From assembly GCA_947491175.1 (NCBI GenBank), contig CANLIF010000001.1, positions 1 through 62,543 on the forward strand: a stretch of 62,543 nt of DNA, in the 5' to 3' direction. This document shows positions 778 to 58,378 of this stretch, piece after piece. How positions within the stretch are numbered: position 1 is the first letter of the stretch; every line of letters starts with the position of its first letter. The stretch comes from Actinomycetota bacterium. GTDB lineage: Bacteria; Actinomycetota; Actinomycetes; S36-B12; UBA5976. Made by a program: the position numbers and the translations under genes. The notes beneath the pieces are model-generated. The model saw nothing but the letters and a program-made list of their open reading frames with translations, made no database searches and was not told where the DNA came from.

Positions 778-2406
778 ATGGCAAAGACCGTTCAATTTGA
801 CGAAGATGCTCGTCGTGCATTAGAGCGTGGCGTTAACGCCCTTGCTGATGCAGTAAAGGTAACCCTTGGACCAAAGGGGCGTAACGTAGTCATTAGCAAA
901 GCTTGGGGCGCGCCAACAATTACTAACGATGGCGTAACCATTGCTCGCGAAATTGAACTTGAAGACTCTTATGAAAATCTAGGCGCGCAATTAGCTAAAG
1001 AAGTTGCTACCAAGACCAACGATGTTGCCGGTGACGGAACCACAACAGCAACTGTTTTGGCTCAGGCATTCGTGCGCGAAGGCCTAAAGGTTGTTGCTGC
1101 AGGTGGCGCGCCAGTAGAACTAAAGCGTGGCATCGAAGCTGCAGTCGCAGCCATGAAGGAAGAACTTCTAAAACAAGCTCGTCCAGTTGATGGCAAAGAA
1201 GGCATCTCACAGGTAGGCGCAATTAGCTCGCGCGACCAGGTAATTGGCGACATGATCGCGGAAGCTTTCGACAAGGTTGGCAAAGACGGCGTTATCTCAG
1301 TTGAAGAATCCAGCACCACTGCAATGGAATTGGAATTCACCGAAGGTATGCAGTTCGATAAGGGCTATATCTCGCCTTACTTCGTAACCGATGCAGATCG
1401 CATGGAAGCCGTAATCGAAAACCCAGCCATCCTTTTGCTGCAGGGCAAAATTTCTAGCGTTTCTGAACTACTTCCAATTTTGGAAAAAGTGTCTGCGGCC
1501 AGCAAGTCTTTGGTAATCATTGCTGAAGATGTTGATGGCGAAGCACTTTCTACCCTTGTGGTTAACCGCATTCGTGGAACTTTCCCGAGTGTTGCAATTA
1601 AGGCACCAGCTTTTGGAGATCGTCGCAAGGCAATCTTGGAAGACATCGCAATCCTTACTGGGGCAACTGTTATCTCGGCTGACATTGGCCTAAAAATAGA
1701 CCAGGTTGGACTGGAAGTTTTGGGTAGTGCTCGTCGCGTTGTTGCAACCAAAGACAACACCACAATCGTTGATGGCGGCGGCGAAGCTACTGCAGTTAAC
1801 GATCGCGTTGGCCAAATTAAGCGCGAGATTGAAAACTCAGATTCTGATTGGGATAAGGAAAAGCTTTCCGAACGTCTTGCAAAGCTCTCCGGCGGTGTTT
1901 GCGTGATCAAGGTTGGCGCGCATACCGAAGTTGAACTTAAGGAAAAGAAGCACCGTATCGAAGATGCTGTTTCAGCAACTCGCGCAGCAATCGAAGAAGG
2001 CATTGTCTCTGGCGGTGGCTCAGCCTTGATTCATGCCTCAGCTGTACTTAATGGCGACCTAGGACTAACTGGCGACCAAGCAATTGGTGTTCAGATTGTT
2101 CGCCGTGGTGTTGTAGAGCCACTTCGCTGGATCGCTGAAAATGCTGGTCTTGAAGGTTACGTAGTTGTAGATCGAGTTCGTGAACTTGGCCAAGGTCAAG
2201 GCATCAATGCTGCAACTGGCGAATATGGCGATCTTGTGGCTCAAGGCGTTATTGATCCAGTCAAGGTAACTCGTTCGGCGCTTGAGAACGCAGCATCCAT
2301 TGCTGGCATGCTTCTTACAACCGAAGCCTTAGTTGTTGAGAAGAAAGAAAAGGCTCCAGAAGTTGGCGGTGGCCACGGCCACGGTCATGCCGGACATACG
2401 CACTAA
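778..2406 (+). CDS. groEL: chaperonin GroEL (GroEL1 type, His-rich C-terminus)
   Basis: 542 aa. Contains [37 protein letters not shown] and [12 protein letters not shown]. The C-terminal [13 protein letters not shown] replaces a GGM tail, as in operon-encoded actinobacterial GroEL1. Confidence 0.98.
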
Positions 2407-2547
2407 AGTGCGTATGTCCTAAATGGGCATTGTCATTTGTTTGCGAACCGCAAGGCTTCGCAAACATACGCACTAAAGTACTTATGTCCTAAATGGGCAT
2501 CGTCATTTGTTCGCGAACCGCAAACTTCGCAAACATACGCACTAAAC
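2394..2547 (+). repeat. tandem repeat (70 + 69 + 15 nt) that starts inside the last codons of groEL and includes its stop codon
   Basis: ACATACGCACTAAAG... recurs at 2394, 2464 and 2533, and the copies are about 90% identical. Copy 1 carries hairpins CATACGCAC-taaa-GTGCGTATG (stop TAA in the loop) and GTTTGCGAA-N9-TTCGCAAAC. Confidence 0.9.
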
Positions 2548-2557
2548 ATTAAATACA

Positions 2558-2596
2558 AAAACAAAACCCCCGGACATGGTCCAGGGGTTTTGTTTT
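2558..2596. terminator. bidirectional intrinsic terminator between groEL (+) and whiB3 (-)
   Basis: AAAACAAAACCCC-cggacatggtcca-GGGGTTTTGTTTT has perfect 13-nt arms. A G/C core flanked by A-run and T-run gives a U-tract in both transcription directions. Confidence 0.75.
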
Positions 2597-2607
2597 AAAC
2601 CTTTAAC

Positions 2608-55755: not shown

Positions 55756-56721
55756 GTGAGTGAAACTAAGCGAAAAGTCCTATTAGCAAAGCCGCGCGGT
55801 TATTGCGCGGGAGTTGACCGTGCCGTGGTCACTGTGGAAAAAGCTTTGAGTGTCCATGGGGCGCCAATTTATGTCCGTAAGGAAATTGTGCACAACAAGT
55901 ATGTTGTCAAAGAACTTGAAGCCAAAGGCGCAATTTTTGTCAATGAAACGGATGAAGTGCCTGAGGGCTCCACAGTTGTATTCAGCGCTCACGGAGTTTC
56001 ACCTGCAGTGCACGACGAGGCAGCACAGCGAAACTTAAAAACTATTGACGCCACATGCCCATTGGTTACAAAAGTTCACGCAGAGGCGCGACGTTTTGCA
56101 TCTGATGATTACCAAATTCTTTTTATTGGACACGAAGGACATGAAGAAGTTGAAGGCACCATGGGTGAGGCACCGACCAATATGACTTTGGTTGATGGCC
56201 CGGCGCATGTTCAGGAAATCGAAATCGACACAACCAGACCTGTTGCTTGGCTTTCGCAAACTACACTTTCGGTTGACGAAACTTTAGAAACCGTTGACTT
56301 GCTGCGGGCAAAGTTTCCAAACCTGATTGATCCACCGAGTGATGACATTTGCTACGCCACTCAGAATCGTCAAAAAGCTGTGAAAGAAATTTCGAATGCT
56401 TGCGACGTAATGCTTGTGGTTGGCTCGGCAAACTCCTCGAACACAGTTCGCCTGGTCGATGTTGCACTTGAAGCTGGAGCGCGCGCTGCTTATCGGGTCG
56501 ATTTTGCTGCTGAAATTGATGAGACTTGGTTAGACGGAGCACAAACAATTGGTCTGACCAGTGGGGCGTCAGTTCCGGAAATTTTAGTTAACGGTGTTTT
56601 GACATGGTTGGCTGAACGTGGCTACACAGATGTTGAAGAGGTTGAGACGATTGAAGAACACTTAATTTTTGCCTTGCCGCCAGAGTTACGAAGAGGCATT
56701 AAGGCTGCCGGCCGCGCCTAA
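55756..56721 (+). CDS. ispH: 4-hydroxy-3-methylbut-2-enyl diphosphate reductase
   Basis: 321 aa. [24 protein letters not shown] and SSNT motifs. Confidence 0.95.
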
Positions 56722-57106
56722 AGATCACAACGCCTGCACTTAATGCAGTCGCGCCCAAGATCCACCAAGCATGCATTGCAAGTCCATACGCAAGATGTAG
56801 AACTTGCTCGCGTAGCAATGAGCCACCGCGCATTGGCGCAAACTGTCCAGTCGTCAAGATTGCAATTACCCAAGCAATCGGCACCACCCAGATTCCAGCT
56901 TGATAGTCCGATGTCCTAACGTTTGCAGCAGCAACCAGAGCGATGATTACCAATCCAAGGTTTGACATGATTCCAATGTCTCCAGTGGTAAAGATGTCTA
57001 TCCCCATCACAACCATCATGGAAATGCTGGTCAGGATTATGACGCCTGGGTATGTCCAACCATTTGGGGTCGAAGCACTTCCCAGTTGCTCAGTAACGTT
57101 TGCCAT
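56699..57106 (-). CDS. hypothetical integral membrane protein
   Basis: 135 aa with 4 hydrophobic segments and no recognisable motif. The 3' end overlaps the ispH 3' end by 23 nt. Confidence 0.55.
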
Positions 57107-57172
57107 GGCTTAAACGTATCGGGTCAAGGCCGAGTCTTTATGAAGGCGGGAATACGGCTACGCTTATGTGCC

Positions 57173-58246
57173 GTGGCCCTAACAATTGGAATCGTCGGAT
57201 TACCTAACGTCGGAAAGTCGACTTTATTCAATGCGTTGACGAAAAATAACGTCCTTGCTGCAAATTATCCATTTGCCACGATTGAGCCAAATACTGGCGT
57301 TGTAGAAGTTCCCGATGTTCGGCTTCCAGTTCTGGCACAAATCTTTAGCTCAGAAAGAATCTTGCCTGCGACGGTGACATTCGTGGACATTGCCGGAATT
57401 GTTCGCGGGGCAAGCGAAGGCGAAGGCCTGGGCAATAAATTCTTGGCAAACATTCGCGAATCAGAAGCAATTTGCCAAGTCATTAGAGCATTCAAGGATC
57501 CTGATGTGGTCCACGTCGATGGCGCGATTTCGCCTAAAGATGACATCGAAACAATTAATACCGAATTGATTTTGGCCGACATGCAAACTCTCGAGAAAGC
57601 AATGCCGAGATTGCTGAAAGAATCCAGACTTGATAAATCTAAAGCTGAATCTTTAGCAACTGCCGAAAAAGCAGTCGAGATTCTTAACTCCGGAAAAACT
57701 ATTTTTGAATCAGGTTTGGACTACGAGCCAATTAGGGAATTGTTTTTACTTACCGCAAAACCATTTCTATATGTTTTTAACTTAGATGAAGAAGAATTGA
57801 CCGACGAGACTTTGAAAAATGAGTTAAGCGCACTCGTTGCCCCAGTCGAAGCCGTATTCATGAATGCAAAATTAGAAGCGGAGCTTGGCGAACTTCCAGA
57901 AGATGAAGCCTTAGAACTTTTGCAGTCCGTGGGTCAGCAAGAGAGCGGCATTGCAATTTTGTCTCGAGTTGGATTTAAAACTTTGGGTTTGCAAACTTAC
58001 TTAACTGCTGGGCCTAAGGAATCGCGAGCCTGGACTATCCCAGTTGGCGCGACAGCGCCTGAGGCCGCTGGCGTGATTCACACAGATTTCCAGAAGGGCT
58101 TTATCAAAGCTGAGATTGTTGCCTTCGAAGACTTAGTTTCGGCCGGATCTGTTGCTGAGGCAAAGTCAAAAGGCAAAGTCCGCATTGAGGGCAAAGAGTA
58201 TGTGATGGTTGATGGGGATGTCGTTGAATTCAGGTTCAACGTCTAG
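57173..58246 (+). CDS. ychF: redox-regulated ATPase YchF
   Basis: IGIVGLPNVGKSTLFNALT, DIAG, NxxD-type motif and a C-terminal TGS-like domain. Start set at GTG 57173 (about 357 aa, the usual length); the track ORF begins at 57086. Confidence 0.93.
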   Translation: MALTIGIVGLPNVGKSTLFNALTKNNVLAANYPFATIEPNTGVVEVPDVRLPVLAQIFSSERILPATVTFVDIAGIVRGASEGEGLGNKFLANIRESEAICQVIRAFKDPDVVHVDGAISPKDDIETINTELILADMQTLEKAMPRLLKESRLDKSKAESLATAEKAVEILNSGKTIFESGLDYEPIRELFLLTAKPFLYVFNLDEEELTDETLKNELSALVAPVEAVFMNAKLEAELGELPEDEALELLQSVGQQESGIAILSRVGFKTLGLQTYLTAGPKESRAWTIPVGATAPEAAGVIHTDFQKGFIKAEIVAFEDLVSAGSVAEAKSKGKVRIEGKEYVMVDGDVVEFRFNV

Positions 58247-58378
58247 TTGAACCTGAATTCAACGGTAGGAAAAGTTGAATTTCATCAGGAGCCAACTTCT
58301 AGTTGAACCTAAATTCAACCATAAGAAAAGTTGAATTTCACTAGGAGACAACGTCTAGTTAAACCTGAATTCAACGGT
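58223..58378 (+). repeat. three consecutive hairpin repeat units (51 + 56 + about 49 nt) starting in the last six codons of ychF
   Basis: Unit 1 is GTTGAATTCAGGTTCAAC-gtcta-GTTGAACCTGAATTCAAC, a perfect 18-bp stem with stop TAG at the loop/stem junction. Units 2 (58274-58319) and 3 (58330-58375) repeat it with a 5-nt insertion in the 5' arm. Confidence 0.92.

Follow-up and report, generated by a model that had tools for sequence, protein, structure and literature searches.

Why should the last codons of a housekeeping gene, together with its stop codon, form a strong hairpin that recurs in tandem beyond the gene, and why at three unrelated genes at once? The question is raised by groEL, guaA and ychF in a stretch of 62,543 nt from a freshwater Actinomycetota bacterium (GCA_947491175.1, contig CANLIF010000001.1, positions 1–62,543, + strand), hereafter the window. 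We propose, with moderate confidence, that the three gene ends carry locus-specific 3′-end RNA hairpin cassettes, whose echo repeats make them expand, contract, get lost and transfer. As judged from sequence, the kept stop-codon hairpin suggests a maintained mRNA 3′-end structure rather than mere replication scars; the architecture is genuine, it recurs, and it has more age and structure than a scar would.

Hairpins and tandem arrays at three gene ends

Tandem Repeats Finder (TRF) returned 21 repeats in the window, only three of which have a period above 17 nt: 2394–2546 (period 70, 2.2 copies), 8392–8576 (period 73, 2.5 copies) and 58237–58380 (period 56, 2.6 copies), with matches of 85–98% within the arrays and periods not divisible by 3. 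All three begin within the final codons of a + strand open reading frame (ORF), that of groEL (end at 2406), guaA (8398) or ychF (58246), where an earlier note on this DNA had placed them. The same note took the final codons of each gene to be the 5′ arm of a hairpin with the stop codon in or at its loop, and this proved correct at all three genes, the stems being 12, 11 and 19 bp long.

From its 5′ end, the cassette comprises the gene end X, the stop codon, X′ (an inverted copy of X), a structured spacer Y of short length and X2, in which the gene end is echoed in direct orientation. X is the last 11–19 nt of the ORF; the echo has 13 nt in groEL, 7 nt in guaA and some 24 nt in ychF. Only X and X′ are gene-derived, so the claim that each array derives from its own gene stands for these two parts and fails for Y. 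The features are listed below.

778–2406, + strand: groEL, GroEL1-type with a His-rich tail (ORF list; Pfam Cpn60 on an identical protein)
2392–2419, + strand: groEL stop-spanning hairpin, X1 GGACATACGCAC (2392–2403), loop TAAA with the stop codon (2404–2407), X′ GTGCGTATGTCC (2408–2419)
2394–2463, + strand: groEL unit 1, 70 nt (TRF, folding)
2440–2464, + strand: GNRA-capped stem in the groEL spacer Y, TTTGCGAACC-GCAA-GG.CTTCGCAAA, with a GCAA tetraloop
2464–2532, + strand: groEL unit 2, 69 nt, hairpin decayed (−2.1 kcal/mol)
2533–2546, + strand: terminal echo of the groEL end, ACATACGCACTAAA (TRF and sequence)
2558–2596, unstranded: canonical bidirectional intrinsic terminator common to groEL and the convergent whiB (terminator scan)
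6833–8398, + strand: guaA, GMP synthase, ending ...TIEWE* (ORF list); its last 11 nt are the 5′ arm
8386–8421, + strand: guaA stop-spanning hairpin, TGAATGGGAAT (8386–8396), stop codon 8396–8398, inner GGC-GAA-GCC mini-stem, ATTCCCATTCA (8411–8421)
8392–8464, + strand: guaA unit 1, 73 nt (TRF, folding)
8440–8463, + strand: guaA hairpin 2, within unit 1, CAC.AGCGCC-ACCA-GGCGCT.GTG
8465–8537, + strand: guaA unit 2, 73 nt (TRF)
8538–8576, + strand: guaA partial unit 3, 39 nt, ending 20 nt before the stop of the convergent PIG-L gene
8596–9351, − strand: PIG-L deacetylase gene, convergent to guaA (ORF list)
57173–58246, + strand: ychF, ending ...VVEFRFNV*, GTG start inferred at 57173 (exact 357-aa protein on other contigs)
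58222–58264, + strand: ychF stop-spanning hairpin, 5′ arm 58222–58240, loop 58241–58245, 3′ arm 58246–58264, stop TAG 58244–58246
58223–58273, + strand: ychF unit 1, 51 nt (TRF and sequence)
58274–58329, + strand: ychF unit 2, 56 nt, 5′ arm with a 5-nt insertion and substitutions (−12 kcal/mol)
58330–58381, + strand: ychF unit 3, missing from L083 and L084

At groEL the last 12 nt and the stop codon supply the 5′ arm and loop of the first hairpin, whose 12-bp stem (−21.5 kcal/mol) carries two compensatory pairs across alleles; the guaA stem has 11 bp (−18.9 kcal/mol) and that of ychF is a perfect 19-bp helix (−31.7 kcal/mol). The arrays as a whole fold more stably than shuffled sequence (z = −6.0 for groEL, −4.7 for guaA and −5.4 for ychF). 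The hairpins of later copies fall to −2.1 kcal/mol at groEL, −11.2 at guaA and −12.0 and −11.4 at ychF, so that while the units do repeat head to tail, as the earlier note had it, the reiterated hairpins degenerate and leave one strong hairpin at the true stop. Nor do the differences between copies in the window keep the pairing, as had been suggested: groEL copy 2 has two pair-breaking changes, and in ychF copies 2 and 3 the 5′ arm contains indels. With this decay of the extra copies, and with the cassette absent from about half of the related strains, a designed multi-hairpin device finds no support.

The array-bearing spacers, at 201, 197 and 180 nt, are among the longest in a compact genome, whose tight packing within the window was also borne out (a 1-nt gap, and overlaps of 4, 14 and 23 nt). 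Elsewhere in the window, the convergent genes 47175–49238 (+) and 49235–50215 (−) overlap by 4 nt in the palindrome GTATTTAACTAAATAC (49228–49243), with both stop codons in the same inverted repeat. A terminator scan found no T-run after any of the three stop-spanning hairpins, which were therefore rejected as canonical intrinsic terminators; the only terminator that it found is the separate one at 2558–2596, which is kept in all strains compared. Because this terminator lies 3′ of the groEL array, the array falls inside the 3′ untranslated region (UTR). No terminator was detected downstream of the guaA and ychF arrays, the latter of which is followed by the start of typA at 58427.

The earlier note had asked whether the arrays might be artefacts of assembly. 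Among independent assemblies from NCBI, JGI, ENA and the Logan assemblies of public sequencing runs, the groEL and guaA arrays recur with the same inter-copy single-nucleotide polymorphisms (SNPs) in L001 and L002, and the ychF array does so in L083, L084 and L086 (L-numbers denote fetched related loci, 202 in all, 2.58 Mb). The matched contigs encode an identical GroEL or YchF protein, and yet array copy number differs: the guaA array counts 2.5 copies in the window but no fewer than 5.5 in L002, where an N gap lies inside it; ychF has two units in L083 and L084 and three in the window and in L086, whose units 2 and 3 are identical to each other; and groEL has 0, 1 or 2 units across strains. 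A short-read metagenome artefact would account for the N gap (L002 17746–17845) and for the contigs L085, L169, L196 and L201, which end 0–50 nt past ychF, guaA or groEL. It would not explain the same arrays and unit-specific SNPs in three to five independent assemblies from different sources, and diverged units in other species cannot come from mis-assembly, so that we regard its likelihood as almost negligible and the arrays as real. Cassette loci do seem to be recurrent assembly break points in lake metagenomes.

The association with stop codons was assessed in about 620 kb of low-GC related loci, where 533 ends and 504 starts of genes were scanned by self-alignment; a scan for 14-mer echoes of gene ends had been too strict, picking up groEL alone, and was replaced by this one. 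Wherever a non-coding long-period direct repeat was found, its first copy spans a stop codon. No repeat covers only a start codon among the 504 starts, the apparent 'start' matches being the same arrays viewed from the downstream gene. Perfect stems of at least 8 bp lie across the stop at 10 of 377 gene ends, and none occurs at 1131 internal control sites or at 367 starts; the ten cases belong to groEL, guaA and ychF, plus one CIRCE operator. The latter, at 299–323, is a fourth stop-spanning hairpin in the window and was set aside as unrelated to the arrays. It belongs to one of two CIRCE-type inverted repeats upstream of groES, CTGGCACTC-N9-GAGTGCCAA at 299–324 and TTAGCACTC-N9-GGGTGCTAA at 343–369, the first of which spans the stop codon of a DUF6912 ORF (2–313) beside a −35/−10-like pair at 310–338.

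The three units share no sequence with one another, and BLAST against the window and the 202 loci, which include only roughly 80 kb of distinct sequence from the window's own species, returned matches at the cognate loci only, with no dispersed copies of units or spacers. The one design that the earlier note saw at three unrelated genes is real, with neither a common unit sequence nor other copies in the 2.58 Mb. An apparent homology between the groEL and guaA spacers came down to TAAA...GGGCA (9 nt) and was not significant. A dispersed family of the REP, BIME or MITE type was rejected, there being no dispersed copies in these loci and X′ being tied to the host gene allele. The view that no described RNA family fits also held. 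In the Rfam scan of the window at the gathering threshold only raiA passed, elsewhere in the window, and at E ≤ 10 the three loci gave generic hairpin or terminator noise, or nothing. The raiA motif is full-length (45584–45836, + strand; RF03072, 149.6 bits, E = 3e-37) and sits in a 355-nt spacer before the ORF at 45925. By contrast with these families, the arrays do have the properties of a variable-number tandem repeat (VNTR) or minisatellite, with head-to-tail units whose copy number differs among close strains in short-read assemblies.

Maintenance of the stop-spanning stems

Evidence for a maintained structure comes from comparing strains. Relatives at groEL comprise 31 further contigs, reached through GroEL proteins 98–100% identical to the query, which form six groups set apart by more than 5% at fourfold-degenerate sites; the window lineage differs from all other groups by 33–36% at these sites. 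Relatives at guaA came from a GuaA search of species-representative genomes. At groEL two haplotypes, GGACATACGCAC/GTGCGTATGTCC and GGACACACTCAC/GTGAGTGTGTCC, both form perfect 12-bp stems and differ by two both-sided changes, one of which is a transversion pair with no route through a G-U intermediate; the stem of L176 is a hybrid of the two haplotypes, with one mismatch. In guaA hairpin 1, GAA/TTC becomes GAG/CTC in L167, an A-U to G-C change, and in the helix of hairpin 2, where one C-G pair is replaced by U-A and two pairs become G-U, every cell of the alignment is paired. Between L200 and L202 the ychF stem shows two compensated positions; in L088 and in the window it fits the synonymous codons of its own gene. 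In short, X′ is complementary to the allele of the gene that hosts it, and the two change together. Covariation is seen between strains, in the first copy, and not among the copies of an array as the earlier note had it, so that its interpretation is partly supported. One-sided transitions in maintained stems give G-U in the + sense and A-C on the other strand in four cases out of four (p about 0.06), a bias that is weak evidence pointing to the mRNA.

Conservation of the groEL cassette exceeds that of its surroundings. It is 90–99% identical between lineages that are 34% diverged at groEL fourfold-degenerate sites (69 of 70 nt between the window and L176), compared with 72–86% for ordinary spacers, and is thus on a par with the CIRCE-bearing groESL regulatory spacers (97–99%). 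The spacer Y alone is 93–100% identical in other lineages, and its stem has a GCAA cap in some lineages and a GAAA cap in others (e.g., the L188 equivalent of 2440–2464). Since both are GNRA loops and the closing pairs are the same, this hints at an RNA-level rather than a DNA-level constraint. Between-lineage identity is 84% for the guaA cassette and 76–83% for that of ychF.

Two other readings of the groEL unit were rejected. A small ORF (MGIVICLRTARLRKHTH) has no Shine-Dalgarno sequence, loses its ATG in L180 and loses its frame in unit 2. An alternative stem, ATGTCC/GGGCAT, showed an apparent three-way covariation, which L175 contradicts and haplotype linkage explains.

How far do these observations count against the null model, in which the arrays are neutral slippage scars, duplications that survive at 3′ ends in a compact genome where hairpins stall replication and seed slippage, with no function? 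Copy number varies and the extra copies decay, as such scars would, and many strains lack the cassette altogether. The periods of 56–73 nt are as long as the ancestral spacers, so that any duplication must overlap a gene end. Moreover, a stop-covering array without a hairpin occurs in an unrelated lineage of 53% GC, where a 28-nt unit is repeated 2.4 times over the last 25 nt and stop codon of a glpX-like gene (L107/L108 4192–4258; gene 4233–5333, − strand), and stop-covering tandem duplications hence also arise without the hairpin design. The model is weakened by the groEL cassette identity just described, by compensatory changes that keep the stems perfect at all three genes, by a spacer Y that is not a local copy, such that the cassette is no simple duplication, and by cassettes at the same genes in several species. 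We consider neutral scars unlikely, though still a live rival.

The conservation of the whole groEL spacer, including its loops and the GNRA-capped stem, would equally suit a 3′-UTR-derived small RNA or cis-regulatory RNA, in which Y and the downstream terminator would be processed to act in trans or to bind a factor, with additional copies raising the dose. The canonical terminator that follows the groEL spacer and the stable folds fit this idea. It is set against the lack of an Rfam match even at permissive thresholds, the lack of shared sequence among the three spacers and the lack of a terminator downstream of the guaA and ychF arrays; the element is also dispensable in many strains, and in the second groEL unit the stem is lost and the frame and structure are shifted. 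Such an RNA is in our view highly doubtful.

Presence, absence and transfer among relatives

The cassette is patchily distributed and its states form a graded series. It is present in five of the six groEL groups, and in groups 4 and 6, each of which differs internally by at most about 6% at fourfold-degenerate sites, cassette-bearing and cassette-free alleles coexist. The groEL stop-to-terminator spacer takes the following lengths.

19 nt: no hairpin
30–31 nt: degenerate remnant
83–101 nt: one cassette
156 nt: two cassettes, window lineage only

At guaA, the distance to the next gene ranges from 2–3 nt through one cassette (of two kinds) to two diverged cassettes, and near-identical tandem units are found only in the window lineage. 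More distant arrays at the guaA stop have a period of 33 in L003 (protein 88% identical), with ATCGAGTGGGAGTAA three times and TTCCCACTCG as X′, and in L010 (protein 75% identical; about 4.8 copies), while L004 and L005 have none; L003–L005 have another gene order, with no groEL in the 7 kb around guaA, and were left out of the groEL cassette comparison. In cassette-free guaA alleles the stop codon lies right against the start codon of a gene for a 116-aa membrane protein (GGGAA TAG ct ATG), so that the end of guaA doubles as the ribosome-binding site of that gene, and in cassette alleles this junction is kept in the last echo (GGAATAGcc ATG). The membrane-protein gene stands between guaA and the PIG-L gene in most related strains (window 8577–8595 compared with L166, L176 and L188); it is missing from the window lineage (window, L001 and L002), in which the guaA array reaches within 20 nt of the PIG-L stop. 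A further accessory difference is a nucleotidyltransferase/HepT-like toxin-antitoxin pair (L001 6216–7066), a small insertion in the upstream flank of the window lineage, between murB and a DCC1-like gene, that is absent in L166–L177. At ychF, cassettes with species-specific stems occur in L088, L200 and L202 and remnants in L198 and L199; no cassette was found in L087, L089, L197 or L203–L205.

Sequence around these alleles indicates that the cassette moves together with the gene end. In groEL, the 240 nt upstream are group-specific whatever the cassette state, and only the last 12 nt or so track the cassette type; cassette and matching gene-end allele are found together in different genomic backgrounds. 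The clearest case is a ychF population with an identical protein (P0146), in which L203–L205 are cassette-free and L202 has a 62-nt cassette. L202 and L204 differ at 18 of 1074 nt in ychF (1.7%), with 5 of the 18 differences in the last 25 nt. The X1-X′-Y portion of L202 shares 83% identity with the cassette of L200, whose lineage is 58% diverged at fourfold sites, and the L202 echo matches the resident gene end of L204 at 27 of 27 nt. The echo differs from X1 at synonymous sites only, which is not expected of a neutral non-coding echo and identifies it as the displaced resident gene end. These alignments show that the cassette reached L202 through homologous recombination, one crossover falling in the coding region and the second within the echo. 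The X...X2 repeats explain precise loss and tandem expansion as well.

This evidence of transfer raises the question of whether the cassette needs to benefit its host at all. As a selfish or hitch-hiking, enzyme-free cassette it would use the flanking copies of the gene end to fill empty alleles by homologous recombination, and template switching alone would keep the hairpin. Near-identical groEL cassettes in lineages 34% apart, presence and absence inside populations, a gene-end allele that travels with the cassette to a boundary at the stem, and the gain in L202 with the resident end displaced as an echo are all in keeping with this. However, no mechanism is known that would bias gain over loss, and the same repeats promote deletion; frequent template switching should also perfect the second-copy stems, which are imperfect, and the divergence of the guaA and ychF cassettes roughly follows that of their hosts, as though they had descended vertically under constraint. 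We judge a purely selfish cassette quite unlikely, though it too is still a live rival.

Gene ends displaced by an incoming copy also call to mind integrative elements. The 3′ ends of guaA, groEL or tRNA genes serve as att sites, guaA and groEL being used by staphylococcal islands, and there too an incoming copy of the 3′ end displaces the resident end downstream, as in L202. The layout X-insert-X-insert-X is formally like tandem integration at a gene-end att site, with the gene-end repeats as attL/attR-type duplications. The inserts are only 34–65 nt here, however, without recombinase or cargo, and ordinary homologous recombination explains the exchange. The neighbouring gene tables list no integrase or island near the arrays; exact-pattern scans for all three cassettes gave 0 matches in 2.9 million viral contigs; and X′ complements and covaries with the host's own allele. 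An att duplication was rejected on these grounds, and integration remnants are largely refuted and very improbable. An integron attC site at ychF (GTTCAAC/GTTGAAC, like the core-site consensus) was likewise rejected, the arrangement being wrong and integrase lacking; the resemblance arises from the FNV codons.

A proposed origin and role, and comparison with known systems

We tentatively propose the following account of how the locus-specific hairpin cassettes might arise and act. X′ would arise by replication template switching that copies the coding arm into the non-coding arm, and the stem could then stay paired through selection acting on the + sense mRNA, through repeated template switching, or through a combination of the two. 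The X...X2 direct repeats would allow slipped-strand or unequal recombination to produce tandem arrays and precise loss, in which case the three arrays of the window may be recent expansions whose extra copies are by-products that contribute little. The echo would provide a right-hand homology arm, through which homologous recombination could install the cassette in cassette-free genomes. In the transcript, the first hairpin is most likely to serve as a 3′-to-5′ exonuclease barrier or as a U-tract-less ('I-shaped') stop signal, a role suggested by sequence features, and would give the mRNA a stable 3′ end where the ORF ends, insulating it from what lies downstream. Stabilities of −19 to −32 kcal/mol, compensatory changes and G-U pairs confined to the + sense are consistent with a 3′-UTR stabiliser.

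Several considerations weigh against this proposal. The groEL cassette is missing from about half of the related strains, and that of guaA or ychF from many, so that any function must be dispensable; among the gene ends sampled the design occurs at only three genes, and the account gives no origin for the spacer Y, which has no local sequence source. The compensatory changes amount to few independent events (two groEL haplotypes, and 5–11 related sequences per alignment), and template switching alone could produce them, just as high conservation with patchy presence is also expected from recent horizontal spread. Copy numbers are uncertain, coming as they do from short-read assemblies. As to the mechanism, the stem includes the stop codon and 11–19 coding nucleotides, so that a terminating ribosome melts the hairpin; groEL has its own canonical terminator some 150 nt downstream; and in E. 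coli a terminator placed a few base pairs after the stop codon is largely inactive (PMC4824070).

Template switching can create perfect hairpins in one step and can maintain them, generating stem-confined multi-base changes without selection (PMC8794818). The cassettes share with these quasipalindromes a one-step reverse-complement copy beside its template and multi-base changes confined to the stem, and the same work matches the stem-limited linkage seen at groEL. It describes a mutational process, however, and not an element, and on that basis neither echo nor spacer, neither arrays nor horizontal spread would be expected. That second-copy stems are imperfect argues that template switching alone is not what keeps the first stems perfect.

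Close in form are the bacterial intergenic minisatellites or VNTR loci, such as the mycobacterial ETR and MIRU-VNTR typing loci, which also consist of 50–100-nt, head-to-tail non-coding units of strain-variable copy number that expand and contract by slippage or unequal recombination. Here, by contrast, the unit is built on the last codons and stop of the upstream gene, the first-copy hairpin is maintained and the cassette is conserved across species. MIRUs themselves form a family that is dispersed and apparently mobile; they insert at start codons and carry a small ORF translationally coupled to the flanking genes (PMC12548453). The units described here are locus-specific and begin at stops, and MIRU membership was rejected, since no dispersed copies of the units were found in the 2.58 Mb of loci and the candidate small ORF does not persist in L180 and unit 2. 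REP and BIME elements form dispersed families of hundreds of copies with a cognate transposase, and lie downstream of the stop without being built from coding sequence. Stem-loops of this type at 3′ ends, often in tandem, are thought to block 3′-to-5′ exonucleases and to set differential stability within operons. The cassettes resemble such stabilisers in placing strong hairpins without U-tracts in transcribed 3′ regions, and differ in being locus-specific with a coding-derived arm. U-tract-less 'I-shaped' and tandem ('U/V-shaped') terminators have been described for Actinobacteria; they likewise are gene-end hairpins without a T-run, several in series, in this case also in an actinobacterium, whereas the present stems take in the stop codon and 11–19 coding nucleotides and groEL has a separate canonical terminator.

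Taken together, the architecture combines a minisatellite, a 3′ stem-loop and a template-switch hairpin, with the twist that one arm is coding and that the echo acts as a means of spread. A more speculative and rather unlikely extension is that it represents an undescribed class of non-coding element, a ribosome-gated 3′-end hairpin that would be open while translated and closed and protective afterwards, and that would be spread, duplicated and lost by plain homologous recombination via the echo, a 'homing' without an enzyme, and that selection would maintain in several housekeeping genes throughout a family of abundant freshwater actinobacteria.

Regardless of function, the loci provide a natural series of empty site, one cassette, diverged duplicates and recent arrays, which documents template-switch-type hairpin maintenance, the birth and death of minisatellites and the transfer of a non-coding cassette by homologous recombination via a gene-end echo. 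In practical terms, the cassettes offer strain-resolving markers, and mark assembly break points, for an abundant lake lineage. If the stop-spanning hairpins are functional, a streamlined genome would be making a 3′-end RNA signal at hardly any cost in DNA, with coding sequence put to second use as one arm, and translation termination would be tied to mRNA 3′-end structure in a phylum whose U-tract-less termination is poorly understood.

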